From an uncultured Dehalococcoidales bacterium (GTDB lineage: Bacteria; Chloroflexota; Dehalococcoidia; GIF9; AB-539-J10), in contig CAZLAL010000090.1 in NCBI GenBank assembly GCA_964557455.1, positions 1 to 47,604 on the forward strand: 47,604 bases of DNA, written 5' to 3'. Under the pieces are notes generated by a model. That model did not search any database, had not been told where the DNA came from, and worked only from the letters and a program-made list of their open reading frames with translations. Shown here piece by piece: positions 24,397 through 38,800 of the stretch (positions within the stretch are counted from its first letter, which is position 1; each line of letters starts with the position of its first letter). A program made the position numbers and the translations under genes.

Positions 24397-24482
24397 GGTT
24401 GTTCCACTCCCAAGGGCTGGCTTGACAGATTGCACCTTCCGTCACTTTGTGCAACAGGAGATTCAAAGACCGGATAAGCGGA

Positions 24483-26483
24483 CTATGTACCTTTTTGCCT
24501 ATGGTGTAGCTGTGCTTGTAGTTCACGGTACTTGTCGATGTATTCGTGGATTGCTATCACAACAGCGGCGTGGCTCCAGGTCAGCGGTGAGACACTGAGC
24601 GGAGCATGATTATGCGGATGAACCTGCTCAGCAAGAACACCACTATGGAGAGCGCAGTGCTGAGCCCAGGTGAGGGTTTGAAGGGCCGGCTTTAGGTCAT
24701 CTACCGATTGAGCTCTGGCAGTGTGGTACTGTGCTACCCACATGGTGCAAACAAACCATGGGTTACCGGGAATATTGGCTATGTCCTGGCTGGCTTGCTG
24801 GTAGCGGTCGTTCTCGTAACGGGCAATGCCTCCCACCTCGGTTTTGCAACAAAGCCTGTCCATAAGTACTGCCATCGTGCTCTCAATAAGGGGATCAGTA
24901 GCCTGGAGCATGCCGAAGAGAAAAGGACCGCAAATACTGCTATCAATAGTGTAGTCCGGTTCCACCACACCGTCAGCGTCAACTTTGACCGAGCGCATGA
25001 AGCGCCCCAACTTCTTGTCAAAAAGATACTCAATAGCCGCCTCTTTTATCTCAGCAGCCGCCTGACGGTACCGTTTGGTGAGGGCCACCTCACCAAACAT
25101 TTCCGTAAAATTGGCTGCCGCTTGTAAGCCTGCCCAAACCGCAGCCACGGTAAACGAGTGGATGCCACGGCGTTCCTCCCAAAGGTCATATGAAGGTGCC
25201 GGAAGTTTCGTATGAGGCTCTCTATAGCTAGCCATAAAATCGGCAGCGTTCTTAATCAGCTTTTGATAAAGGGAACGGATGTGCTCTACATTGTGGAACT
25301 TATGGTAGTGGTGCCAGAGGCTGTATATTACTAAAGCAGTCTCATCCTCTTCAATTGGCAGTTGCAGCTTGCCCTCCTCGTCTGCCCAGGGCATCCACTG
25401 GCCCGCCAGATACCCGTCAGCGGTGTACTTGTGAAGGAGATAGCCTTCACTGGTAATGACATTGGCGCAAAAATCGAAGAACTCGTGACTGACTTCATCG
25501 TAGTTGGCCATGTCGAGGGCCTTAGCGGTGAAGGCGCCATCACGACCCCACACATAAGAGTAGATGTCCCCCAAAACTTCGGCGATGTCTGAGTCACTGC
25601 TGGCAATGATAGCGCCGCGGTTATCAGTCTGCACACGCATCGTGAGCAAGCTGCGGCGGTACAGGTCCAATATAGAGGCCGGCAGGCCGGCAAAGTCCAG
25701 CGATTCCTTATTCACCCATGCTCGCCAGTAATCACGGGTGCGTATGATGAATGACTCAGGTCCACGTTCCTTGACCAGAGCGTTGAGTTCCTCGACTCCG
25801 TGGAAATGGGTACTGGCCGCCAGCCAGTGGTAAATGGTTGAGCTTCTTCCAGCGGGCACAGCCTTCTCATAGAGCCCGATGACGCCCTCAGCGAAGCCGC
25901 AGGTAAGAGGCACCTTCTCCAATTTGCCATCTTCGGCATCGCGCCGTGCACTTTGTTTATCCTCTGATTTTATGCTTCCGGTTGTCCAGTCGTCGAGGCC
26001 AACTCTTCCATTTACTTGGCCACCTGCCATGAAGTAACGCTGCTCTTTATACATCACCAATGCCCTCAGTTCTGGGTGGTAGTAGATAGTATCGCTTATT
26101 TCCCTGCCCAGGACCCGTAGCGCATAATGGAAGAATAGACGTACGTCGCGGGGGTAGTCTCGGTGATTGACGATATTAACTCGTCTAAAGAAGATGTCCC
26201 GGTGAAAGTCCACGAGGTCAGAATAGGTGAGGGTAAGCCCTATCTCAGGATTAGTGGCCGTAACTTTGGTGACCAGACTATCGCTTTCATAGACCATTTC
26301 CTTCTGCCACTGGGGGCTGTCAATCCAGGTGAAGTTGCCATCAACCCAGATGCCAGTACGTGATACACAACCTTCGGCATGGTTCTCCTTGCCGACATAA
26401 GGATAGTAGATATCCCGGATGTTGTAATCAGTATCGAAATTGATGAGCAGGTTGCCATTGCCTACAGGTAAGTCTCTAGGCAT
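24483..26483 (-). CDS. glycoside hydrolase family 15 (glucoamylase/trehalase-like)
   Basis: 666 aa. The N-terminal beta-sandwich start (VGNGNLLINFDTDYNIRDIYYP) and the (alpha/alpha)6 region blocks (YSYVWGRDGAF, SYDLWEER, PNPWFVCTMW, LAEQV) follow the GH15 pattern. GGAGGG RBS upstream. Confidence 0.85.
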   Translation of the reverse strand: MPRDLPVGNGNLLINFDTDYNIRDIYYPYVGKENHAEGCVSRTGIWVDGNFTWIDSPQWQKEMVYESDSLVTKVTATNPEIGLTLTYSDLVDFHRDIFFRRVNIVNHRDYPRDVRLFFHYALRVLGREISDTIYYHPELRALVMYKEQRYFMAGGQVNGRVGLDDWTTGSIKSEDKQSARRDAEDGKLEKVPLTCGFAEGVIGLYEKAVPAGRSSTIYHWLAASTHFHGVEELNALVKERGPESFIIRTRDYWRAWVNKESLDFAGLPASILDLYRRSLLTMRVQTDNRGAIIASSDSDIAEVLGDIYSYVWGRDGAFTAKALDMANYDEVSHEFFDFCANVITSEGYLLHKYTADGYLAGQWMPWADEEGKLQLPIEEDETALVIYSLWHHYHKFHNVEHIRSLYQKLIKNAADFMASYREPHTKLPAPSYDLWEERRGIHSFTVAAVWAGLQAAANFTEMFGEVALTKRYRQAAAEIKEAAIEYLFDKKLGRFMRSVKVDADGVVEPDYTIDSSICGPFLFGMLQATDPLIESTMAVLMDRLCCKTEVGGIARYENDRYQQASQDIANIPGNPWFVCTMWVAQYHTARAQSVDDLKPALQTLTWAQHCALHSGVLAEQVHPHNHAPLSVSPLTWSHAAVVIAIHEYIDKYRELQAQLHHRQKGT

Positions 26484-26510
26484 GTTAGTTGTTACACTAC
26501 CCTCCTCTCT

Positions 26511-26730
26511 CGCTTTAATACACTATTATAGACCTCTAGGGTTTTCTGAGATGCTGGATTTCGTGAAAGTCTCTCTGCAGTCTCTCGGGCACGCTCAGCC
26601 GTAGCCTTTCTAAGTCCGGCCGATTTAATACAGTATTATAGACCTCCAAGGTTTTCTGAGCTACCTGATCCCATGAGAATTTTTCTGCGGTTTCCCTAGC
26701 ACGCTCACCCATGGTCTTTCTAAGTCCAGC
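26511..26730. repeat. tandem direct duplication, 2 x 110 bp, 85/110 identical
   Basis: 26511-26620 and 26621-26730 align without gaps (my count: 85 of 110 matches). The unit is the 3' end of the GT4 gene. Confidence 0.85.
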
Positions 26731-27804
26731 ACTTGAAAGCAGCAACTCGATTTTTGCTGCCAGGCCGTTGACATCGGAGGGGGCTCTAAGTAGGAGGCCA
26801 TTTACCCCATCGATTATGAGATCGGCAGCTCCGGCAACCCTGCTGGTGATTACAGGCAAGCCGCTGGCCATAGCCTCGACGATGACCAGACCAAAGGGCT
26901 CATATATGGTAGGAAGAACGAATATATCGCTAGCAGCATAGTATTCCCAAAGATTGCTGCTGTGAGGAACAAAGATTATCCTCTCCCTCACCCGCTTTAG
27001 CTCCGCAAGCTGGCCGTAGAATTTCTCGTCATCGCTACCAATAATTATAAGTTTGACGTTTCTTTCCGAAAGCAGTGGAAGTACTTCTATGATATACCGA
27101 ACTCCCTTCCTTTCCCAATCGCCTCCAGCGAACATCAGTAATGGATCACTACGGGATACAGCATGCTTTTGCCTGATCTGGCCTCTATAGAGCAGCCGAT
27201 TAGTCGGGTGGAATCTGAGAGTATCTACTCCATTAGGGATTACGATGATGTCTTTGGCCGCATCACCGTAATGGCGGGCAAACTCCTTTTGCATAGCCTG
27301 AGAAACTACAATACACGCTTTAGAGTTGCTGCGATGAATTATCAGCCCCTCAACAAAGCATAGCAGGCTGCGATACAGCCTGTGGTCCAAGGCTTTCAGT
27401 TTTTGCCAGACACTCCTGCATGGTATCTTAATTATGTTAGCTTTTTCGAGACACCGGCACTCTCTCTCACAGAAATGAGAGGTTATAACGTTTGAAGAAA
27501 AGGCAGAGTCATACCCTGTCGAATGAATGATGTCAAAGTCTGTTTTTCTGAGAAGGGAAAGAGCGGCAAGAAGTAAGGTACTGGATATCAAGAAGGTAAT
27601 GTGTGCCAAAGACTTGCCACATCTGAGTGCTGGCACCTTATAGTGCTTAACTTTGAGTAAGTCAATTCCATTTATAGTATTAGAAAAAACCGAAACCTGA
27701 TGATCCTCACAAAGCCTTTCGACTAGGTGAGCGGTGACGGTTGCTGGCCCTGTTTCAAAGTTAACGTGATGCGCAATGAAAGCGATCTTCAAGCTTATCT
27801 CCAA
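26536..27804 (-). CDS. GT4-family glycosyltransferase (glycosyl transferases group 1)
   Basis: The GT-B C-terminal block PTIYEPFGLVIVEAMASGLPVITSRVAGAADLI is the EX7E-type GT4 signature. The likelier start is TTG 27792 (MKIAFIAHH), 6 nt after GGAG. The last 28 codons come from an out-of-frame duplicated copy of the gene's 3' end (see the repeat feature). Confidence 0.85.
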   Translation of the reverse strand: MEISLKIAFIAHHVNFETGPATVTAHLVERLCEDHQVSVFSNTINGIDLLKVKHYKVPALRCGKSLAHITFLISSTLLLAALSLLRKTDFDIIHSTGYDSAFSSNVITSHFCERECRCLEKANIIKIPCRSVWQKLKALDHRLYRSLLCFVEGLIIHRSNSKACIVVSQAMQKEFARHYGDAAKDIIVIPNGVDTLRFHPTNRLLYRGQIRQKHAVSRSDPLLMFAGGDWERKGVRYIIEVLPLLSERNVKLIIIGSDDEKFYGQLAELKRVRERIIFVPHSSNLWEYYAASDIFVLPTIYEPFGLVIVEAMASGLPVITSRVAGAADLIIDGVNGLLLRAPSDVNGLAAKIELLLSSAGLRKTMGERARETAEKFSWDQVAQKTLEVYNTVLNRPDLERLRLSVPERLQRDFHEIQHLRKP

Positions 27805-27831
27805 AAGGGGCCTCTAGCATAGGGACTTAGT

Positions 27832-27899
27832 ATATGGTGCTTTTGCGGGAGAGCACCAGACTTTGGTTCAAAGAGCTACTGCCAACCCTACCACCAAGG
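27832..27899 (+). pseudogene. decayed tRNA-Ala-like remnant, same orientation as tRNA-Ala at 4557
   Basis: GCgGGGAGAGCAC (27845-27856) matches the D-arm 4572-4583 at 12/13. GGTTCAA (27865-27871) matches the T-loop GGTTCGAA. CCCTA plus CCACCAAGG (27886-27899) matches 4619-4623 plus 4627-4635. The order and strand are conserved, and the spacing is 9 nt shorter. It does not fold into a cloverleaf by eye. Confidence 0.35.
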
Positions 27900-28406
27900 C
27901 CGCCGCTAAATGGCGCTTGCCATCTGGAACTATAAATATTATACCACAATGGACACGGTGTGCATAGAAACTTACTCTATGTCAGCTGCTGCGCAAGGGG
28001 TCGAGTCTAAACAAAGGGTGCAAGCTCCAAAGTAACGAATACAATTCACATTGAGATGAACAAAAAGCCATAAGGTGTAATATTGGCCTCCCGAGCAGAA
28101 GAATAGCACGTACTCTCTTGAGGTTCACCTAATCACTTACTGGCTAACCGCCGCAATTCCGATCAGCCCTGCTATGCCAGTAAACGTCACGCTTTCACTA
28201 ACAGCCAGTTCGAACCACTTCTTACATAAGCAACCCGACGAAAACGGTATAGGCAATGCCGACCGAGTTCTGAATACTACATCGGCAGTAATCGAAATCT
28301 TGACGGGAGCCCCGAAGGGGCAAGACAAGCCCAGCAAGGCTATAACAATACAGCAGGTCGGAAAGGTTGCTTTCATTAGCCCTGATAAACGCGTCATAGT
28401 AAGTAA

Positions 28407-28432
28407 GCTAGCTAGCTAGCTAGCTAGCTAGC
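28407..28432. repeat. (GCTA)6.5 perfect tetranucleotide repeat, fully self-complementary
   Basis: GCTAGCTAGCTAGCTAGCTAGCTAGC, flanked by TAAGTAA on the left and by CATAGT on both sides (28395-28400 and 28436-28441). Confidence 0.95.
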
Positions 28433-28518
28433 ATGCATAGTCAGTATGCCTCTTCAACTCCAGAACCTTATTATATGCTGTCTCCGTCGGAATCAACCTT
28501 GTGTCATTCTTACCCGAT

Positions 28519-28890
28519 TTATCCAGAAGGTGTTGGATGCGAGTATCCTCTGTCGTAGATTCCCGAGTCTCTCCATCTTTCTCTCCACTCTTGCTGGGCC
28601 TCCGATCCGGTATACCGAGAGTACTGATTACTCTCGCCAGCCAAGAATAGCCCGTACTCGGTTCCATCGTCATACCCGTTGAGGTAGCCAGTCCACCAGC
28701 CATCATAATGTCCAACGTCGTAACCTGCGTCAACCCAGTAGCTACGTGCCTCTTCATACCCTTCTTGGTACCCTACCTCATACGCTTCATCTTTTAGTTG
28801 AGACACCCAGTGTATGTTGTACACGTGACCAGCTACACTAACCACCAACAAGAATGCAAGAATACCAACAAATACATACCACTTTTTCAT
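28519..28890 (-). CDS. membrane-anchored hypothetical protein, Tyr/Gly/Asp/Glu-rich ectodomain
   Basis: 123 aa, with AAGGAGG 8 nt upstream of the ATG. N-terminal anchor MKKWYVFVGILAFLLVVSVAG, then repeated GY/DG motifs (YEVGYQEGYEE, DAGYDVGHYDGWWTGYLNGYDDG). Confidence 0.6.
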   Translation of the reverse strand: MKKWYVFVGILAFLLVVSVAGHVYNIHWVSQLKDEAYEVGYQEGYEEARSYWVDAGYDVGHYDGWWTGYLNGYDDGTEYGLFLAGESNQYSRYTGSEAQQEWRERWRDSGIYDRGYSHPTPSG

Positions 28891-28983
28891 TGCTTACACC
28901 TCCTTATCTCTTGTAACCCGTTCTACTTTACTCATAGTCTATGGACTTATATTCTAATTATCACTTACGCTTATTGCAACTGC

Positions 28984-29223
28984 ATGTCTAAGCAAGTCGC
29001 TTCGGACCCATTTCTATCAGCGTTTGGAAGCCATCTGCGCTCTCTCAGGAAAAGGTCCGGCCTTTCTCAAGAGGAAACCGCGGATAAGGCAGGACTCCAT
29101 GTCACTTATGTCAGCGGAGTGGAGCGCGGTTTACGCAACCCATCTATACGTAGTGTTAAGCGATTGGCACAAGCACTGGGAGTGCCGGCGAGAGCGTTAT
29201 TCGACTTTGACGAGCCTTCTTAA
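28984..29223 (+). CDS. XRE-family helix-turn-helix transcriptional regulator
   Basis: 79 aa from ATG 28984. LRSLRKRSGLSQEETADKAGLHVTYVSGVERGLRNPSIRSVKRLAQALGV is a textbook Cro/C1 HTH. The N-terminal 62 codons in the ORF track are low-complexity read-through. Confidence 0.8.
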   Translation: MSKQVASDPFLSAFGSHLRSLRKRSGLSQEETADKAGLHVTYVSGVERGLRNPSIRSVKRLAQALGVPARALFDFDEPS

Positions 29224-29433
29224 CAGATTTTGGTGTGACATAATAGTCAGCCAGATTACGACTTCAAGATTTGCCCCCTTGCTCCCGTTTCAATTCCAGG
29301 TTCTAACTGTTAATTTCTGAGTTGTAGCTTCTAACTTACACTTGGAATCTGAAACTTGGAACTCGTAGCTCATATGGAGTTGCATAACAATCCGATGTAT
29401 TGTTGGTGGGGTCATGAGCTATAATTGTGATAG

Positions 29434-30120
29434 ATGGGGCGAAGGCGAATAATATATGCGTGTGACGTTGGAACCACCCAGTGTTCCGCAGAGACTAGCT
29501 TACCATCCTTTGCGTGGGCTAGAGTGAATCCCGAAGATGGCACCATTCAGGTGTCTTCCTACATTTGCAAGCTAGTTCAGCAATTGGAATCAGACATCCG
29601 GCAAGGATATAGTATTGCTCTTGGATTTGAAGCACCTTTGTTCATTCCAGTTCCTGAAGATTGGCGAGACTTAAGTAAGGGGCGCGAGGGAGACGGCAAC
29701 CGTCCTTGGTCGGCATCATCAGGAGCATACGTTACTACCCTAGGAATTCATCAGTCTGCATGGATTCTAAAAAGGCTTCATGAATCCTCATCCGGTAAAT
29801 GTGAATTCACGCTGGATTGGCGGCGCTGGTGGCCACCTTCTGGTCATCAACCGATTCTATTCTGCTGGGAGGCTTTCGTTTCTGGAGAAGCTCACAGTGG
29901 CGACCACACAAAAGACGCTGCAACAGCGGCTGCTTTCTTCTCTTGCTATGAACAGAAACTGCAAGAAGTAAGAGAAGTCAAAGCCAAATGTACCATTTCG
30001 CTGATAGGTGCGGTTGCGCTTTGGAGCGGTTGGGTGAGGGACCTAGAATTTATTCATGAACCAACTCTCGTTATCAAGCCCAAAGAACCGTTTAGGGGTG
30101 ACTGCCAAAATCTCGATTGA
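29434..30120 (+). CDS. hypothetical protein, possible RNase H-fold (DUF429/RuvC-like) nuclease
   Basis: 228 aa. An acidic triad-like pattern in RNase H order: IYACDVG (strand 1 Asp), IALGFEAPLFIP (Glu) and GDHTKDAATAAAFF (helix Asp). TATAAT at 29420-29425 lies only 8 nt before the ATG and there is no SD, so the transcript may be leaderless. The function is an inference. Confidence 0.5.
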   Translation: MGRRRIIYACDVGTTQCSAETSLPSFAWARVNPEDGTIQVSSYICKLVQQLESDIRQGYSIALGFEAPLFIPVPEDWRDLSKGREGDGNRPWSASSGAYVTTLGIHQSAWILKRLHESSSGKCEFTLDWRRWWPPSGHQPILFCWEAFVSGEAHSGDHTKDAATAAAFFSCYEQKLQEVREVKAKCTISLIGAVALWSGWVRDLEFIHEPTLVIKPKEPFRGDCQNLD

Positions 30121-30181
30121 CCATGACAGCATGTCCGCAACGTCTGAAAACCACACCTTTTAGCTTTTTGTTACCCGTAAT

Positions 30182-32059
30182 CTACTTTTTACACCAACGT
30201 AGCACGGACCTTTTGTCTTTTTCAGACTTCTCCATGACCTCTATTTGTGTATCGTCATCTCTATCCAGAAGCATGTATCCAGTGGCCGTATAAAACGTAT
30301 CCTTTGTTGGCCCCGTACTCCATTTAGTAGTGTCCACAATCTTGATACTATATGTTCCACTTAAATTCTTGATGGCGCCCTCTATTGAAACTAATCTGGT
30401 TTTTATTGCACTTACTTCAGTCTGCTTCTCCGCTCTGATAGTATTTTCATCTGGACTAAAGAATATTTCTAGGTCACCACACTGTGTTTCCCAGGTCCCC
30501 CCAAAATGGTTTGGCCGGATAGTCTTGTCGGTCAGGTAAGATTCTGCGTACCTCACTCTGAATCGTCGTTCATTTTCTGCGTCCATTAGTAATTCTCTTT
30601 CCTTGTCGTTCTCTTCTTTTGATATCGAATCTAACCGATTCTTAGCGTAGCCCACGTTGCCATGAACCTCGACATCAGCCTTGGACAAGTCATTTGCCCT
30701 TTTAATCATTTTGCTAGCATCTTCTACAAATCCTTGGTCGAGATATCTGTTGGCTAGATTAGCCATCGCTAGAGTTACTCTACGGTCTGCTGCTTTACAA
30801 TAGCTATTAATGCTCTTTCCCTTCAAGTCAACCTTCTCATATTGAGCGCCGAGATTATTTAGTCCCATAGGTTCTTCTACGGCATCTGTGAGCTTCTTAT
30901 AGTGCAAAAGGCTTATTCTATGCTGACCCGCTGCTGAATAACGGTAAGCCAGATTGAATCGCAGGTCGGTATATGTGGGGTCCATATCTAGGCATCCTTC
31001 CGCATATATGAAGAATCGTTCCATGTCCATGTTATCTTCCGCTATATCAGCCAGACCCTTCAAGATTTGTGCTCTCTGGCCACTGAACTCACCTTCGCGT
31101 AGTCGTTTGGATAGCAAGGAAATCGCCTCATCATACTCTCCCTGCAAAGCTATGCATTGACTTGCCTCAACATAGCAGTTAACTATGCTCACCTTAGCAC
31201 TTTCATTCGTAATGTCATATATATCCTTCACCTCTAGATATTTGTCTTTCGCCTTCCCGTATTCTCCCATGTGTTTCAGTCTGATGGCTAGCTGCTCCAC
31301 TACTTCGGCTTTGTCCTTGTTCTTTTCCGCAAGCTCCACGAGTTCCCCGAAGGCAGCTGAATCACCAAAGGAGTGAGCCATTCGCAAGGTAAAACCTTTC
31401 CATACCAACTTATCATCTTCAGAAGAGAGAGCTGGCACAAGGTCTGTTTCGTATGCTTTTCTGACCGTGGCAGGGTCCTTAGTATCAAGGGCCTTCCAGT
31501 ACTTGCCGAAAGCGTCCTCTTCTCCTATAGGAGTGGGAGTTTCCCTTTTCCCTTCTTGTTTTTCCTCTTTTCCCTCTGGAGATTCTGGTCTGTCATATAC
31601 GCCACCCGTCACTAAGGTCTTTGCCTTTCCCAACGTGGAGTCAATTACTTGATTCAGTTTAACAAAAGGTTGTTCTAAGTCATTCCTAGTGAAATATATG
31701 AGCTCTAAATCACCTTGCAGTTCAGGGAATTTATAGATGCCTTCCTCTACGATAAGAATGAGCGGTTTATCCCGGCCCAAAGCAAACCCAGATTCCTGAA
31801 TTACCCAGTTAGATGTAGTGTAGGCTTTTTCACGGCTGAAAATGCCTTTAGCAGTATCTATTTTCTTATCACAGGTAAATATACCAGCAAAAACATCACT
31901 TTCGCCTATCTTATCTTGGACTTTTCCCGCTATTGATTTATTCTGTACCCGTTCGCCTGTAATTACCTCTATATCGTCCCTAGATTTAAAAAATTCTAGA
32001 AACTTGCCAATAACAGTATCGTCCTTATCATCAAAACTGTGTCCTATAAATATTTTCAT
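30182..32059 (-). CDS. TIR-like (COG4271/Cap12-type) N-terminal domain fused to TPR repeats and an unknown beta-rich C-terminal domain
   Basis: 625 aa from ATG 32059, with GGAGGAATAAC upstream. The N-terminus (KIFIGHSFDD...SDVFAGIFTCD...SNWVIQESGFALGRDKPLILIVEEGIYKFPELQGDLELIYF) follows the FI.HG / vi.E.G.a.G / PSD.G..Y pattern of TIR-like nucleotide-binding domains. Residues ~230-480 show repeated TPR-like helical hairpins (GEYGKAKDKYLE, GEYDEAISLL). The last ~110 aa are unassigned. Confidence 0.7.
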   Translation of the reverse strand: MKIFIGHSFDDKDDTVIGKFLEFFKSRDDIEVITGERVQNKSIAGKVQDKIGESDVFAGIFTCDKKIDTAKGIFSREKAYTTSNWVIQESGFALGRDKPLILIVEEGIYKFPELQGDLELIYFTRNDLEQPFVKLNQVIDSTLGKAKTLVTGGVYDRPESPEGKEEKQEGKRETPTPIGEEDAFGKYWKALDTKDPATVRKAYETDLVPALSSEDDKLVWKGFTLRMAHSFGDSAAFGELVELAEKNKDKAEVVEQLAIRLKHMGEYGKAKDKYLEVKDIYDITNESAKVSIVNCYVEASQCIALQGEYDEAISLLSKRLREGEFSGQRAQILKGLADIAEDNMDMERFFIYAEGCLDMDPTYTDLRFNLAYRYSAAGQHRISLLHYKKLTDAVEEPMGLNNLGAQYEKVDLKGKSINSYCKAADRRVTLAMANLANRYLDQGFVEDASKMIKRANDLSKADVEVHGNVGYAKNRLDSISKEENDKERELLMDAENERRFRVRYAESYLTDKTIRPNHFGGTWETQCGDLEIFFSPDENTIRAEKQTEVSAIKTRLVSIEGAIKNLSGTYSIKIVDTTKWSTGPTKDTFYTATGYMLLDRDDDTQIEVMEKSEKDKRSVLRWCKK

Positions 32060-32157
32060 GTTATTCCTCCTGGTCGCGGTTAGATTTCTGAAGACCAACA
32101 GATGTTGCCATAGCGGCACAAGAATTCAATACCGATTCTCCTTATAAAGGTAATAGG

Positions 32158-32186
32158 ATTATAGATTGCTAGATTTAAAGGGTCAA
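32158..32186 (-). promoter_or_regulatory. near-consensus promoter TTGACC-17-TATAAT for the TIR-like-TPR gene
   Basis: On the minus strand, TTGACC is the complement of 32181-32186, followed by a 17-nt spacer and TATAAT (complement of 32158-32163). This implies a ~90-nt leader. Confidence 0.55.
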
Positions 32187-32575
32187 CATGAGGATTGTTA
32201 TGTGTGATTAGCAGCGATACTTGTCATCTGTCAAATAGGGGAACTATTCTGACCTCTACAATCTGGCGTTTTGTTACGCTTGTGATAAGAGTCAAATCCT
32301 GCGTCATAGGTTGCTCAACCGTCAGATGAAAGTTTAGGAGACCCTCAAACTTCACGAAGCGAGTAATTCACAACTCCTTCTGGAGAGGTTTGGCTGGTGC
32401 TATAATTACGTTGAGCACATCAGTGAAAACAGCTATTCTAGTTTGCTGTAGCTTTGGTTTGGCCTTATTAGCCTTGTTAGGTTCATCATATACCCGTGGC
32501 GGGCGCACGCCTGACGTAATCAAGTTGGAGATACTAAGTAAAGCCTGATAGCCCTTTAAGGAGCTGTGAGGACAT

Positions 32576-35500
32576 ATGACTTACAACCGTTTGATTTTGG
32601 ATGGTTACGGGAGTGAGGTACAGGAGCAGTTAGCTTCTCTAATTGCTGAAGCAAAAAACGACAACCTGCTTGCTCCGGTAACAGTCGTCGTACCCTCCAT
32701 GTACACTGGTCTGTCGGTGCGGCGCAGTCTGGGAAAACAGCGAGGCCTAGTAAACGTACGCTTCATGGTCCTACCCAGACTCACCGAGTACCTGGGAGCA
32801 CCAGCACTAACCAGACAGGGTAAATCACCTCTCACGCCAACAATGAAGCTGGTCGCAGTTAGGCACTTTGCCAGCGAGATGGCAAACAGGGAACCGCTTG
32901 GCGCAATATCCAAGCATCCCCCGCTTCATGGTTATCTGGTAAATAACTTCAATGAGCTTGCCATGCTGTCGGAAAAGCAGTTGTCGTGGCTGCAAGCAAA
33001 AACCCCGGTACTGAACCAGGTCGTTGAGTGGTATCACATGTACCGAGAGCTCACGCAGCCTTACTACGACCGTGAGGAGCTTGCCCACTCCGCTGCTATA
33101 TCAGTTGACAACGGCGATGCTGAAAGCGTGCTGAAAGACCTCGGCTTCATTATCTTTTACCTGGTTACAGGTTTTTCGCGGGGCGAACTGGCTTTCGTAT
33201 CCAGTCTTGGGGTGCGCAAATGCTGCGCCGTAATTCTTGGCCTTACCGGAGAAGAAGAAGTTGATGCCGAGAGTCACAGACTGGTTTCGCGATTGGAACC
33301 AGTACAGGGAAAGGCTGCAAGTACTATACCCGCTCCAAAGAGCTATGCAGCCGACCATATCACAATTGCTTCAGACTCTAACGAAGAGGTGCGCTGGGCA
33401 GTTCGACATATCGCACAATGTGCGGAGAACGGTGTCCGGTTTCACCGCATGGCCCTACTGTATCGTAACGCTAGTCCTTATGCAGAATTAATCAAGAGCT
33501 ATCTCTACCTGGCACAGATTCCTGTTGCCGGTCCCGACCCTGTACCTCTCCGGGATTCGGCAGCAGGGAAAATAGCTCTCTATCTCATCGATGTATTTGT
33601 GTCTGATTTTGCCCGGGAGAGTGTTATGCGGTGGATATCGGAAGCACCAGTTTATACAGGAGAAAATACAGAGTCCCCCTCAAGGGAAGCTGCGCTGTGG
33701 GAGGAGGTATCCGGCAGAGCGGGAATAATCAGGGGTGCTGGACAGTGGAGCAATCGTCTAGAGCGCTTCTGCACAGGCATAGAACAGAAGCTAAGAAGCG
33801 AAGAACCACGTGAAGAAGACGAGGAAACTGTGACCACCAGCCCCGATGAGGATTGTGCTAAGGCGGGGATGCGGCTCAAGTCGTTTGTCGAAAGGTTGTC
33901 AGAAAACCCTCCACCGACTGACGAAAGCTCATGGAAAGACTACTCGCAGTGGGCATCCCGGATGATGAAGCAATACTCTCACCTGGATACATGGCCCGAA
34001 GCGCAGATATTGAGTTACGAACGAGTGACTGCAGTGTTGCAGGAATTGGGTACACTGGATTCTATCGAGCCCGGCGGTACTAACCTGGGCGGTTTTCGCC
34101 AGATGCTTGATGATTGCCTGAAGATGAGCTCGGGACGATTAGGGACTGTTGGAGAAGGAGTCTTCGTAGGTCCACTGGCATCTGCACAGGGCATGGAGTT
34201 TGACATAGTTCACATTCTGGGTATGGTCGGCGGAGCATTTCCTCCCAAACTCCATGATGACGCCATTATTCCAGATCAGTTACGTGAAGAACTGGGCGAC
34301 AATAGCCCGCTGGCGCTACGTGACCAGAGGCGTATAGATGAGCGCCGACTCTTTCGAGCAGCCCTCGCTTCGGGACAGAAGAGGATCCTGTCATATCCCC
34401 ACTCCGACGGAGACGGTAAAAGGCAGTGTTACCCTTCACCCTGGCTCATGAGCGAGGCTGAAATCCTGCACAGTAAATACAAGCAAATAGAAGCATCGGA
34501 AAGTGAAGCTTACACACCCATTCGTTGTGTAGAGTTAGAAGGGATGGCTGCCGAGGAGTGGATATCAGTTATTCACTCCATTCATGGCAGCGTGCTGTCG
34601 CTGGGTGGGCTCGTGGCAGCGGATATTCATGATTATGATATACACAGTCTGGCCAAATGGCATGACTCGGGTTACCGTGTTGACAGGCACTTTCTCATGA
34701 GAGAGCGCAGCATTGCCCATCGGGCACTCATGACTGAAAGAGCGTCTAGGAGTACAGCCTTCACCGCCTGGGATGGAAACGTCACCTCTCTTGCGGGCAG
34801 AAGCCGAAGACTTGGCATGCCAGGTAAGACAGCACACTCACCGACGAGGCTTGAGCTCTGGGCGAAATGCCCCTTCCGTTATTACCTGAAGCATGTTCTT
34901 GAGGTGCCGGTGCTTGAACGCCCAGAGGAAATCCTCACCATATCTCCCCTGGATCGTGGGTCTCTGGTACACGGAATACTGGAGAGATTTGTGAAAACCT
35001 TGAAGGAAAGCGGGCAGATGCCTGGCTATGGAGAACCCTGGGATTCGAACCACCAAGCACTGCTCATGCAAATTGCAGAAGAGGAATTTGCCAAGACCGA
35101 ATCGCTTGGCTTGACGGGGAGGCCTCTTCTCTGGAATGTAGTTATGAGTGAGATACGAGATGACCTATCTCTATGTTTGAAGAAGGACAGCGAATTACGT
35201 GCCCAGACAATGACACGGCCTGTAGAAGTTGAATGGCGGTTTGGTTTTGGGGAAGCGGGTCAGTGTCCTCCCGTAACACTCGAAATCGGCAGAGGGCAGC
35301 AAATCATGTTCAGGGGGATTATCGATCGGCTGGACAGCGATGAATCAGGCACAAGGCTTTTTATAGTGGACTATAAAACCGGCAGCTCTTACGCTTATCG
35401 TGATATGAGAGATGACCCGCTGGGAGCGGGAACTCACCTTCAATTACCGGTGTATGCTCTCGCGGCTCGTAGTGCATTCGGGCAGGAAAGTAAGGTTCAG

Positions 35501-35800
35501 GCCGGTTACTGGTTTATCTCTGCCCGGGCTGGTTTTGATACCAAGGGGATGGTCTTTTCCGAAGAACTGGAGCGTGATTTCGTGAACATGGTGCGTCTGA
35601 TTGTGTCCGGCATAGAGGGTGGCCTTTTCCCTGCCAATCCCGGAAGCGGCGGCGCAGGATTCAATAATTGCGCCTACTGTGAGTACGCACGTATCTGCCC
35701 GGCTGATATAGATATGGTGTGGGAGAGGAAATCTCAGAACCCCGAACTTGCTTCGTACTTAAGTATGATTACGGGAACAAGAACAGAGGAGATCGAATGA
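32576..35800 (+). CDS. AddB/RexB-like helicase-nuclease subunit: degenerate helicase fold without Walker A, C-terminal PD-(D/E)xK nuclease with an Fe-S cysteine cluster
   Basis: 1074 aa. The N-terminus VTVVVPSMYTG has no GxGKT. GMEFDIVHILGMVGGAFP and RRLFRAALASGQKRILSYP are AddB-type motifs. Nuclease blocks LFIVDYKTGS and HLQLPVYALA. Cysteines: CPFRYY...CAYCEYARIC. Confidence 0.85.
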   Translation: MTYNRLILDGYGSEVQEQLASLIAEAKNDNLLAPVTVVVPSMYTGLSVRRSLGKQRGLVNVRFMVLPRLTEYLGAPALTRQGKSPLTPTMKLVAVRHFASEMANREPLGAISKHPPLHGYLVNNFNELAMLSEKQLSWLQAKTPVLNQVVEWYHMYRELTQPYYDREELAHSAAISVDNGDAESVLKDLGFIIFYLVTGFSRGELAFVSSLGVRKCCAVILGLTGEEEVDAESHRLVSRLEPVQGKAASTIPAPKSYAADHITIASDSNEEVRWAVRHIAQCAENGVRFHRMALLYRNASPYAELIKSYLYLAQIPVAGPDPVPLRDSAAGKIALYLIDVFVSDFARESVMRWISEAPVYTGENTESPSREAALWEEVSGRAGIIRGAGQWSNRLERFCTGIEQKLRSEEPREEDEETVTTSPDEDCAKAGMRLKSFVERLSENPPPTDESSWKDYSQWASRMMKQYSHLDTWPEAQILSYERVTAVLQELGTLDSIEPGGTNLGGFRQMLDDCLKMSSGRLGTVGEGVFVGPLASAQGMEFDIVHILGMVGGAFPPKLHDDAIIPDQLREELGDNSPLALRDQRRIDERRLFRAALASGQKRILSYPHSDGDGKRQCYPSPWLMSEAEILHSKYKQIEASESEAYTPIRCVELEGMAAEEWISVIHSIHGSVLSLGGLVAADIHDYDIHSLAKWHDSGYRVDRHFLMRERSIAHRALMTERASRSTAFTAWDGNVTSLAGRSRRLGMPGKTAHSPTRLELWAKCPFRYYLKHVLEVPVLERPEEILTISPLDRGSLVHGILERFVKTLKESGQMPGYGEPWDSNHQALLMQIAEEEFAKTESLGLTGRPLLWNVVMSEIRDDLSLCLKKDSELRAQTMTRPVEVEWRFGFGEAGQCPPVTLEIGRGQQIMFRGIIDRLDSDESGTRLFIVDYKTGSSYAYRDMRDDPLGAGTHLQLPVYALAARSAFGQESKVQAGYWFISARAGFDTKGMVFSEELERDFVNMVRLIVSGIEGGLFPANPGSGGAGFNNCAYCEYARICPADIDMVWERKSQNPELASYLSMITGTRTEEIE

Positions 35801-38800
35801 GCCAGGAATTTGTTCCCTCCGACCAGAAACACAGGATACGCGTAGAGAACGAGCTGGACACTACCTTCTTCGTGGAGGCAGGTGCCGGCACCGGGAAAAC
35901 ACGGGAACTTGTGCAGCGCATTACCAACCTGATAGTCTGCGGAGTAACACAAATAGACCATATCGCGGCCATCACCTTTACAGAGGCAGCTGCTGCTGAA
36001 CTGAAAGACAGAGTTCGTACGGACCTTGAAAGGTGTGCTACCGACCGGACGCTGGATGGTGAAAAGATAGCAAGGTGTCGTGCTGCTCTAACCCGTTTTG
36101 ATGATGCCAGCATTCAGACACTGCACAGTTTTGCAGCATCTCTTCTGCGGGAGAGACCGTTTGAGGCAGGGCTGCCGCCCAACTTCGAGGTTGTTGCACA
36201 AATGGAGGCTGGTATCGACTTCGAGCGAAACTGGCAGGAATGGGGGGACGGGGCAATGGAGAGAAAGGAAACGGCCTCCCATTTGCTCACTGCCATGACC
36301 TTGGGCCTCAGGATGAATGACCTCAAGACAGCCGCAAGGCTGCTTCATGAGAACTACGATATGATGCCTGATCGGTTTGAACCCGTTCCTCCACCATCGC
36401 CCAGGATAGCACAGGCTGTCGTATCAGAAGCCAAACATATCGAGCTGTTAATGGAGCTGGCCAATGAAGGCTTTAATGATACTCTTGCTGCCCATGCACA
36501 AAGGGTGGTCGACCTGGCACGCACTCTGAGTTCCATGAATTATAGTGGTAACGCCGCGCTTTCGCTCCTCGCGGGCTTTGGTAAGCTGTCCTGCAAGGCT
36601 GGTCGCAAACAAGACTGGGCGGATGTAAAAGCCGGTGTGAATGGATGCACCGTGCTCAAACAGCTGCTGGAGAAACTCGAGGCAATGAAATGCGAGGAGC
36701 TTGAAGCTGTTCGCCGTGCTGCCCTGATGCCGCTCCTTGAGGACCTGAGGAGCTCTCTGCTGAACTGGGTTGAACAACGTCGCAGCGACAGCAAGGTTGA
36801 TTTCCACGACCTGCTGGTGCGAACCAGGGATATGCTGCGTGATGTGCCGGACGTAAGGGAGCACTTCCAGAAACACTTCACCCACATATTGATTGACGAG
36901 TTCCAGGACACTGATCCCATCCAGGCGGAGATTGCCTTCTTTCTGGCTGCAGACCAGAAAGCGATGGGCCGTAGCGCTCTTACTGAGAAAGATTGGAGGA
37001 AGCTTGTAACCACCCCTGGCAAGCTGTTTATGGTGGGAGACCCCAAACAATCTATTTACCGTTTCCGGAGAGCAGATATCGCCACAGTGCAGGACGTAGG
37101 TGAGATTCCTGGAACGGACAACGTACCATTGGAACAGAATTTCCGCTCTCAGGAGCCGGTGATTGCCTGGGTTAATGCGGTATTTGGCAGGTGGATGGGC
37201 GACGGCAAGCCTCACGTTCAGGCAACTTATGCCAAACTGTCGGCGCGATGGAACGACAAAGGTGCTGTACCTCCGATGGGAGTGCACCGCTTTGGAGAGG
37301 CTGTGGATGAGGCGGCAGCGCAGCTCAGGAAATACGAGGCATCTTCCATTGCCAATGTTCTCTACGTTATCAAGAAGAGGCAGTGGCAGGTTAGAAATGC
37401 CGTCACAAATACTCTGCATCCGGCACGCTACTGTGACATCTGTGTACTCATGCCTACACGCACCGTATTACCCTACATAGAACGTGCTCTTGACGAAGCT
37501 AATATCCCCTATCGCATTGAAAGCGAGTCCCTTATTTTTGGGACACAGGATGTCCGTGAGCTTCTCAGCTGCCTGCGCGCCATTGATTCTCCTGCCGACA
37601 GGGTGGCACTGGTAGCCGCCCTTCGTTCAACCGCCTTTGGATGCAACGATGTCGAGTTAGTGGAATATCTGGATTCTGGAGGCCTTCTTGACTACACGAG
37701 CCCTGGCAAGGCTGATGGACCGGTGAGCGAGGCTATGCAGGTACTGGCACGATACAACGAGATGCGCACTTGGGTACCCATCGACCAGTTAATCGAGATG
37801 TTCATCCGAGAGAGGCGCCTCGCCGAGATAGCTTTCGGCAGGGCCAGGCCAAGAGAACGACTTCGCCGCCTTAAGATGGTGGCACAGCAAGCACGAGCGT
37901 TCTCCGAGATAGGAGAAAGATCGCTCCGAATCTTTGCCGACTGGATGGAGCAACAGATGGCCGAGGGCAGCCGCATGGTGGAAATCCCGGTACCGGAAGC
38001 TGATGAAGATGCAGTTCGTATTATGACAATTCATGCTGCCAAGGGATTGGAGTTCCCTATCGTTATACTGGCGGGAATTGGAGGCACTGGTGCAAGCCGC
38101 GGTAATCCCGTCATATTCGAACGAGATGGGGGTAGTGTTGAGGTAAGCTTGGGCATAGAGGGAAGGAAGTTTGTGACTTCAGGCTACGAAAGAGCACGTG
38201 AGCAGGAGAAGGAGATGGATGAGGCGGAGGCAGTCCGCCTGATGTATGTAGCTACCACCAGAGCCAGAGACCACCTGATGGTAAGTCTTTATCGAAAAGC
38301 CACTAAGTCGATGAGTAATGCTCTTGCGGCAGTCATCGAAAGGTTCGCCGGCGAAACTGGCTGTAAATGGGATGAAATTGACTGCTCACAGGTGGATACA
38401 GAGGAAATACGAGAGCGTGATACTGATGTTCCGAATGTGTTAGGTACTGAGGCTGATAGAGAGAAGTGGATAACTGACCGTGAGACGGTCTTAGAACAGG
38501 CCTCTAGGAAGCCAGCCATAGCGGTGACCGCGCTGGCTCACTTGGACAAGGAAGAACCTGAGCGGGGAGAAATTTACTATCGAAAGGGGCGAGGAGGTAC
38601 CAGTCTGGGTCGTGCTGTGCACAGTGTTCTGCAAAGTATTGACTTGGCTACTGGGAAAGATCTGGAAGAAATAGCCAGAGCCCAGGCTGCCGCCGAAGGA
38701 ATACATGACAAATGGAAGGAGGTGGCGGGATTGGTACGCCGCGGCTTGAATGCACAAGCAGTGAAGCGTGCAGTTGTTTCGAATAAGTATCATCGTGAAG

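Follow-up and report, generated by a model that had tools for sequence, protein, structure and literature searches.

The question raised by the locus described here is whether three adjacent genes form one defence system or whether one of them could defend its host alone. The genes lie between positions 28,984 and 32,186 of contig CAZLAL010000090.1 (assembly GCA_964557455.1), which comes from an uncultured Dehalococcoidales bacterium of the phylum Chloroflexota and whose entire length of 47,604 nucleotides (nt) is referred to below as the window. They encode an XRE-family protein, a protein of 228 amino acids (aa) and, converging on the latter, a 625-aa protein that combines a TIR domain, TPR repeats and a C-terminal beta domain (CTD), which we call the TIR-TPR protein. 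A first-pass annotation had located the three open reading frames (ORFs) at the positions given below, and its sequence observations were confirmed. Of its overall interpretation, the identity of the TIR domain and the one-protein architecture held, whereas the three-gene locus, the regulation by the XRE protein and the degree of novelty did not. The reading that we favour, with moderate confidence, is that the 625-aa gene may be a self-contained, horizontally mobile single-gene anti-phage module that would unite an abortive-infection sensor with an NAD+-hydrolysing enzyme (NADase). On sequence grounds, the TIR-TPR gene is a credible candidate for single-gene defence.

The TIR domain and its conserved glutamate

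The ORF of the 625-aa protein, including its stop codon, occupies positions 30182..32059 of the minus strand and is supported by a ribosome-binding site and an ATG, by its homologs and by its AlphaFold model. Residues 1-147 (31619..32059, minus strand) constitute the TIR domain, which was recognised from its matches to the PF10137 and TIR_2 families, from an invariant motif and from the order of its strands and helices. PF10137 (CAP12-PCTIR_TIR) scores 18 bits against the whole protein, over residues 2-116, and 22 bits against the isolated domain. When the N-terminal domains of the family were scanned singly, PF10137 was found in 33 of 34 (best E 1.6e-10) and TIR_2 in 21 of 34 (best E 1.4e-10). 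A nucleoside deoxyribosyltransferase had been named as an alternative identity for this domain; because the corresponding model, Nuc_deoxyrib_tr, gives a weak match in just two of the 34, the profiles point to TIR and bear out the Cap12-type assignment made at first pass. A search of PDB sequences with a profile of the domain returned no match.

An alignment of 50 family sequences shows F4, F9, F57, S83, W85, Q88, E89, G91, A93, E105, L114, Q115 and F123 to be invariant in this domain. Conservation of the catalytic glutamate had been suggested as a check on the assignment, and it is complete, since the residue at that position, E89 (codon 31793-31795, minus strand), is present in 50 of the 50 aligned homologs. 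In the AlphaFold model, a helix at residues 84-95 follows a strand at 78-82, and the order of strands and helices fits a TIR fold. S83, W85 and E89 are spaced as S-x-W-x3-E, which we take to be the arrangement that carries the catalytic Glu in TIR NADases of plants and bacteria. By its profile matches and the alignment, the N-terminal domain belongs to the Cap12/PycTIR type of TIR domains, its Glu is conserved, and it is probably NAD+-degrading.

A putative TPR and beta-domain sensor without an NTPase

The AlphaFold run, made with the family alignment, gave a mean predicted local distance difference test (pLDDT) value of 86 for the 625-aa protein and resolved it into the TIR domain (1-147), a linker (148-178), the TPR part (180-461), a helix (467-508) and a beta domain (521-624). 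The linker, a disordered and charged stretch assigned to residues 148-179 (31523..31618, minus strand), has pLDDT values below 50 at residues 146-178 and varies across the family in both length and sequence. The TIR domain had been described as fused directly to the repeats; this description has to be amended, because the disordered linker 148-178 intervenes in the model.

The TPR solenoid, residues 180-461 (30677..31522, minus strand), extends over about 280 aa and is supported by matches to several Pfam TPR families, by Foldseek and by invariant columns of the alignment. With the whole model as query, Foldseek returned consensus TPR proteins and the TPRs of O-GlcNAc transferase, with E values down to 2e-10; TPR proteins filled the list, and the domains at the two ends were left without a match. 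A long charged helix, at residues 467-508 of the model, and its connector (residues 462-520; 30500..30676, minus strand) lead to the CTD, which comprises residues 521-625 (30185..30499, minus strand) and has eight strands between residues 521 and 624 of the model. The CTD belongs to no Pfam family, and the only result of a profile search of PDB sequences was a weak match to LigA (E 0.004), which was rejected as a relative because it is likely spurious. With a mean column identity of 38%, this domain is poorly conserved, as expected for a target-recognition surface.

The profiles of Pfam, NCBIfam and PADLOC reveal no P-loop or nucleoside triphosphatase (NTPase) domain in the 625-aa protein. Likewise, the ten flanking ORFs that were scanned, between 18.4 and 44.9 kb of the window, include no cyclase, NTPase partner, TIR gene or candidate effector. 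The first-pass annotation was therefore accurate in describing TPR repeats followed by a beta domain, here of 105 aa, that lacks a known family, with neither an NTPase nor a cyclase gene nearby, and its proposal of a sensor and an effector in one protein fits this TIR-TPR-beta architecture.

As a separate observation, the part of the protein comprising TPRs and helix (residues 234-542, 30434-31360) matches phrog_31809, a phage family without an assigned function, with an E value of 1.4e-16; it is the sole PHROGs match.

Exchange of effector domains on a common scaffold

A profile of the helix and beta domain retrieves 304 representative clusters. Among the 150 clusters listed, the CTD is C-terminal in nearly every case, and full-length members measure about 620-670 aa. 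One protein of this set, P0280 (784 aa), carries a SIR2_2 domain (E 1.1e-14; with GAGSS, TTNFD and LHGD motifs) ahead of a homologous TPR-CTD, in which the CTD is matched with an E value of 3.8e-21; the nearest relatives of its TPR-CTD (56-74% identity) carry TIR. The SIR2 part of P0280 shares 89% identity with the SIR2 part of a 554-aa protein of this kind and about 40% with SIR2 proteins of about 1015 aa, and the 784-aa sequence is present in two sources, Logan and NCBI. In another member, P0248, an N-terminal hydrophobic helix stands in the place of the TIR domain.

TIR and SIR2 are exchanged on the same TPR-CTD scaffold. Immune proteins characteristically exchange NADase-type effectors on a single sensor scaffold, and the swap of an effector domain such as SIR2 argues that the N-terminus is the effector part. 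We regard this exchange as the most telling result for a role in defence.

A gene that travels alone

Based on DNA homology to relatives in unrelated contexts, the TIR-TPR gene was delimited as a single-gene unit at 30154..32274. In blastn comparisons of the window, locus L118 matches it at 86% over 30154-32274, and loci L119 and L120 match it at 79% over 30179-32274. The shared DNA consists of the TIR-TPR gene with its promoter region, reaching 215 nt beyond the gene on the upstream side and about 30 nt on the downstream side. The closest relatives of the protein (83, 72 and 65% aa identity) have wholly different neighbouring genes: a restriction-modification control protein (C-protein), two methyltransferases and a HARE-HTH protein beside the 83% relative (L118), and a serine recombinase, an HNH and a PLD gene beside the 65% relative (L121). 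A 666-aa and a 422-aa gene beside the L118 homolog were considered as equivalents of the GH15 and GT4 genes of the window and rejected, given that their lengths coincide without homology.

The gene also brings its own expression signals. A promoter of the form TTGACC-17-TATAAT (32158..32186, minus strand) agrees with the consensus at 11 of 12 positions, is the top site of the promoter scan and is conserved in L118 and L119. It is followed by a leader of about 90 nt, and AGGAGG at 32071-32066 lies 6 nt ahead of the ATG of the ORF. The near-consensus promoter and the leader of about 90 nt reported at first pass are thus corroborated. The idea of integron cassettes was dropped because the genes are convergent and have promoters of their own.

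Full-length relatives of 620-670 aa number at least 156, and the family spans more than 10 phyla, including archaea. Its hosts include Methanobacteriaceae, Woesearchaeota, Zixibacteria, Planctomycetota, Omnitrophota, Nitrospirota, Melainabacteria, Acidobacteriota and Chloroflexota, and most members come from uncultured anaerobes and archaea. A search of 150 other genomes of the same order did not find the gene. The survey of gene neighbourhoods that the first-pass annotation had proposed found no conserved partner, either across 37 genome loci with TIR-TPR relatives or across 80 metagenome loci with relatives of the 228-aa gene. The TIR-TPR gene therefore has cassette-like mobility and a patchy distribution, without a conserved partner.

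It had also been stated that an absence of homologs from defence contexts would speak against the proposal. The homologs are often found beside genes for restriction-modification, recombinase, HNH or PLD, HEPN, caspase, ThsB-TIR and SIR2 proteins. The tallies of neighbours include DpnI, MvaI/BcnI, type ISP and type IIG enzymes, several methyltransferases, SIR2_2 and a DDE transposase; ThsB_TIR accounts for 2 of 122 neighbours. Two individual arrangements were also recorded. At L021:1208-3793, the gene immediately upstream of a full-length TIR-TPR relative is a HEPN gene, and at L035:8874-10516 a caspase-domain gene immediately precedes a short ORF (about 175 aa) whose match is confined to the TIR domain; the upstream gene is on the same strand in both cases.

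Trigger, mode of activation and the case for defence

If the protein acts as a single-gene module, the TPR solenoid and the CTD would keep it inactive and would recognise an infection cue, most likely a phage protein. Binding of the cue would lead to oligomerisation or to release of auto-inhibition, through which the N-terminal TIR domains would meet and form a composite active site around E89. The assembled TIR domains would then hydrolyse NAD+ and the infected cell would be arrested, as in abortive infection. In this scheme, activation would take place without an NTPase switch and without a cyclic-nucleotide second messenger. From the architecture and the family comparisons described above we infer the role in defence, the NADase chemistry, the kind of trigger and the way in which the protein is activated.

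The TPR part itself gives reason to consider another mode of activation. Five of its polar residues, E354, R367, H386, N401 and N402, are invariant in the 50-sequence alignment, and they could form a fixed small-ligand pocket or, alternatively, a docking surface for the TIR domain. The protein might then be a signal-activated effector in the manner of ThsI or BcTpr, whose TPR would bind a nucleotide signal such as cyclic ADP-ribose (cADPR) supplied by a remote TIR protein or cyclase, or its own TIR domain might signal to an unlinked effector. In favour of this reading are the ligand pocket suggested by the invariant residues, the response of ThsI to cADPR (bioRxiv 10.64898/2025.12.03.692087), the two-gene precedent of a TIR and a TPR protein in BcTir/BcTpr (bioRxiv 10.1101/2023.05.26.542521) and the two ThsB_TIR genes among the 122 neighbours. 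However, the N-terminal domain is a TIR domain and not CMP-hydrolase-like, the deoxyribosyltransferase match being weak and confined to 2 of 34 sequences; no partner gene is conserved in the loci surveyed and none appears among the ten flanking ORFs; the TIR-TPR gene travels alone with its own promoter; and the SIR2 swap marks the N-terminus as the effector. We consider activation by such a signal unlikely, and retain it because the invariant polar residues of the TPR could form a fixed ligand pocket.

Returning to the single-gene module that senses infection directly, several observations weigh against it. The invariant residues of the TPR resemble a fixed ligand pocket more than a fast-evolving sensor of phage proteins. 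The PF10137 scores of the 625-aa protein itself (18-22 bits) are lower than the gathering score of 24.7, and the SIR2 variant comes from one 90% cluster. TIR domains may also make signalling molecules rather than deplete NAD+. The enrichment of defence genes among the neighbours is a rough count with no background comparison, and many of the neighbours elsewhere are housekeeping genes (ALAD, DAHP synthase, ETF, SOD). Finally, no model of PADLOC v2 matches the TIR-TPR protein, and the family has no tblastn match in the phage or plasmid collections and none in the IMG/VR pattern scan.

Some of these observations would also suit a protein with no role in defence, an accessory TPR scaffold whose TIR-like domain would bind nucleotides and which would serve a housekeeping, regulatory or stress function. 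In favour of such a role are the many metabolic neighbours, the lack of a match to any model of the PADLOC defence database and the absence of matches in the phages and plasmids searched. This reading is harder to reconcile with the invariance of the catalytic-type Glu and of the full set of TIR motifs, with an extremely patchy distribution in which near-identical cassettes occur in unrelated contexts, with the recurrence of conflict-type neighbours and with the exchange of TIR and SIR2 on the same scaffold, and we judge it improbable.

Comparison with known systems

By analogy of organisation, the closest functional counterpart of the TIR-TPR protein would be DSR2, a single-gene system with an N-terminal SIR2 NADase and a large C-terminal helical-repeat sensor, without an NTPase, which is activated by a phage structural protein. 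Both have an N-terminal NADase-type effector and a C-terminal repeat sensor encoded in one gene that lacks an NTPase, and a further trait that recalls DSR2 is the SIR2_2 domain of P0280, whose relatives include the SIR2 proteins of about 1015 aa. They differ in size (about 1000 aa for DSR2, about 625 aa here) and in effector (SIR2 as opposed to TIR), and the sensor here consists of canonical TPRs and a beta domain; the likeness shown is one of organisation.

The TIR effectors Cap12 of CBASS and PycTIR of Pycsar deplete NAD+ and are switched by cyclic nucleotides through a fused sensor, with the cyclase encoded in an adjacent gene. By profile, they share the TIR subfamily PF10137 with the TIR-TPR protein, which, however, has no SAVED, STING or cyclic nucleoside monophosphate (cNMP)-binding sensor and no cyclase in the ten flanking ORFs. 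Avs proteins and other bacterial NLR-like members of the STAND class that have TIR effectors consist of the N-terminal effector, a STAND NTPase and a C-terminal TPR sensor, and act by pattern recognition. The TIR-TPR protein resembles them in the N-terminal position of its effector, in the C-terminal position of its TPR sensor and in the logic of pattern recognition that it would follow, but the disordered linker 148-178 stands where they have the STAND NTPase.

ThsI of type VIII Thoeris joins a nucleotide-hydrolase-like domain to TPRs (bioRxiv 10.64898/2025.12.03.692087). Together with BcTpr, it has in common with the TIR-TPR protein a Rossmann-like N-terminal domain followed by TPRs and a link to TIR-based immunity. 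In those systems, however, the TIR is encoded by a separate gene and the N-terminal domain is CMP-hydrolase-like, whereas in the present protein the TIR is fused and a partner gene is lacking.

A precedent also exists for a single protein. TIR-II of E. coli is one protein with TIR and TPR that acts against phages and requires the active-site residues of its TIR domain (Nat Commun 2024, PMC11350192). It is described as widespread, with about 70% of its members lacking an ATPase and about 30% having one, and it has been reported in Caudoviricetes as well (PMC11350192). The newness that the first-pass annotation implied for the architecture is consequently reduced: because single-protein defence by TIR and TPR was already known from TIR-II (PMC11350192), the TIR-TPR architecture is not new in kind. 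The two are alike by described architecture, with TIR and TPR in one protein and, in the present family, no conserved partner. This family differs in its distinctive CTD, in its hosts and in having no tblastn match in phages or plasmids.

If the protein does defend alone, it would enlarge the group of NTPase-free proteins that combine a sensor and an NADase (TIR-II, DSR2 and SpbK) by a compact family of about 300 clusters. The group would then also take in Chloroflexota, Planctomycetota, Omnitrophota and archaea, methanogens among them, which are poorly sampled for defence. Its putative conserved TPR pocket and variable beta domain would make it a tractable case for the switching of a TIR domain without an ATPase or a second messenger, and the exchange of TIR and SIR2 offers a natural experiment on an effector-agnostic scaffold.

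Three adjacent genes and the question of a single locus

The first-pass annotation had read the XRE, 228-aa and TIR-TPR genes as one defence locus. The DNA homology and the neighbourhood surveys contradict this, with separate units and no conserved neighbours, and on these grounds the three genes are juxtaposed independent accessory genes; the XRE and 228-aa genes happen to adjoin the TIR-TPR gene in a strain-specific segment. The XRE-family protein (79 aa; 28984..29223, plus strand) is supported by its ORF and by an HTH_3 match with an E value of 5.9e-17. The ORF of the 228-aa protein (29434..30120, plus strand), which is supported by its homologs and its AlphaFold model, is separated by a gap of 61 nt from the ORF of the 625-aa protein, which converges on it.

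Were the three genes to form one system, the XRE protein would repress the 228-aa nuclease, the TIR-TPR gene or both, and the nuclease and the TIR-TPR protein would cooperate. The genes are indeed adjacent, the two units of DNA homology abut within about 20 nt, and the best PADLOC match of the XRE protein is a control protein. Moreover, locus L053 (192-1631) repeats the convergent pair, with a 228-aa homolog (59% aa identity) and a distant TIR-TPR-like gene that shows 31% aa identity over its C-terminal part and inside which the contig ends. Because both families are rare, two co-occurrences, in the window and in L053, are well above chance, and the recurrence may reflect an insertion niche common to both genes or a partnership that is formed occasionally.

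The wider surveys nevertheless point the other way. No 228-aa homolog occurs within 10 kb in the 37 genome loci of the TIR-TPR family, nor within 6 kb in four loci of the three closest TIR-TPR relatives. A TIR-TPR gene is missing from 79 of 80 loci of the 228-aa family, as is an XRE homolog from 79 of 80, and the search for neighbour clusters gave none in either family. For both genes, the nearest relatives (86-94% nt identity) lie in unrelated DNA with sharp borders of homology, and the XRE gene is 3 kb away from the TIR-TPR promoter. As for the XRE protein as a regulator, a homolog stands upstream of the 228-aa gene in 1 of 80 loci and within 10 kb of the TIR-TPR gene in 2 of 37, being adjacent in one of them. 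A single three-gene system is accordingly very unlikely in our estimation. Adjacency within an island does not amount to a system, as two unrelated single-gene units abut here.

A broader reading would take in both the scaffold and the recurrent pair. The TPR and beta domains might represent an undescribed NTPase-free sensor scaffold of bacteria and archaea, with interchangeable death effectors (TIR, the SIR2 of P0280 and the membrane helix of P0248) and a recurrent association with a mobile 228-aa RuvC-like gene, which would be a homing-type element or a modulator. We put this forward tentatively, as a possibility on the doubtful side.

The 228-aa protein and its unit

The 228-aa family has 513 homologs, and it corresponds to no Pfam, NCBIfam, PADLOC or PHROG family; a pattern scan of IMG/VR also found nothing. 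The AlphaFold model of the protein (pLDDT 92) has the order b1-b2-b3-a-b4-a-b5-a, as in an RNase H-like core, with strands at residues 5-11, 27-32, 37-41, 60-66 and 141-147 and helices between them. D11, E66, H106, E146 and D161 are invariant in the family, and four of them (D11, E66, E146 and D161) occupy the positions of the acidic residues of RuvC-type nucleases, in b1, in b4 and after b5, as is required of such a core. No significant Foldseek match was obtained for the model, the best E values being 0.026 in the PDB and 0.016 among viral structures, and the weak matches are mostly RNase H-like (MutS connector domain, integrase cores, RuvC, RNase H and terminase nucleases). The D...E...D pattern in RNase H order seen at first pass is thus supported by the order of strands and by the invariant acidic residues, but not by any significant structure or profile match. 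The protein is an orphan and, on the strength of the model, probably has an RNase H-like (RuvC-like) fold.

The unit to which this gene belongs was placed by DNA homology at 29385..30173, abutting the TIR-TPR unit. In blastn comparisons it matches L038 at 94% and L039 at 86%, as well as L041, L044 and L045, with starts at 29385-29395 and ends at 30165-30173; relatives at 94, 86 and 77% nt identity share no DNA with the window beyond this interval. The 228-aa gene recurs, along with about 49 nt on its upstream and about 52 nt on its downstream side, as a sharply bounded segment (94-72% nt identity) in many unrelated contexts. The unit could be a small mobile or homing-type element that encodes a RuvC-like protein. 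It may instead be a multicopy insertion sequence; against this, it is single-copy in the source genome, which is 65% complete, and no clear terminal inverted repeats were seen by eye. The TIR-TPR gene is likewise single-copy in this genome. The 228-aa gene was found in 1 of the 150 other genomes of the same order.

The best PADLOC model for the XRE protein is a restriction-modification control protein (Control_protein, 3.5e-19). The XRE gene has no adjacent restriction or methyltransferase gene, and we did not class it as a C-protein. A role for the 228-aa gene as a restriction enzyme controlled by a C-protein was also considered and rejected, as its homologs have no conserved neighbour and the sole methylase matches are two Eco57I-type enzymes.

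With respect to expression of the 228-aa gene, a perfect TATAAT at 29420-25 lies 8 nt ahead of its ATG and there is no Shine-Dalgarno sequence; the leaderless mRNA suggested at first pass is therefore plausible. On the other side, this TATAAT has no good -35 element and the promoter scan did not list the site. The direct repeats reported between the XRE and 228-aa genes, AG(G/C)TTCTAACT x2 and ACTTGGAA x2 (29298..29361, plus strand), are both present, and a repeat listing gives the TTCTAACT pair alone. Two pairs of 8-mers in about 210 bp are only marginally above chance. They had been proposed as possible operators; they are not operators of the 228-aa gene, because they lie outside its unit.

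Two further observations concern the same spacer. The segment 29234-29374, where the direct repeats lie, is matched at 81% over 140 nt by a contig (G036:C80) from one genome of the same genus. The XRE gene and the spacer downstream of it are flanked by an 11-nt inverted repeat at 28975-28985 and 29374-29384, with 10 of 11 positions complementary, which may be due to chance; its right arm stops exactly at the start of the 228-aa unit.

Genomic context of the window

Of the ten flanking ORFs, three have no Pfam family, and those with a Pfam match are a type IIG Eco57I-like restriction-modification enzyme, GH15, GT4, AddAB and an SbcCD-like pair. Scans with Rfam and for tRNA genes between 27.7 and 32.7 kb gave no match. 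The comparison with genomes of the same genus indicates that 24431-28081 is shared (GH15, GT4 and about 280 nt past them) and that this synteny ends at about 28071-28081 in five genomes. From 28082 to 36000, a region that includes the XRE, 228-aa and TIR-TPR genes and AddB, the window is unmatched in 35 same-genus genomes, save for three stretches of 100-150 nt.

In the intergenic region between the border of the TIR-TPR unit (32274) and addB, the stretch 32258-32493 has matches of 75-77% over 100-150 nt in three same-genus genomes; it belongs to no Rfam family and is single-copy in the source genome. On the other side of the three genes, the GT4 glycosyltransferase (26539-27804) also passes the Pfam model 'GT4-conflict', with a score of 41.7 bits compared to a cut-off of 26.

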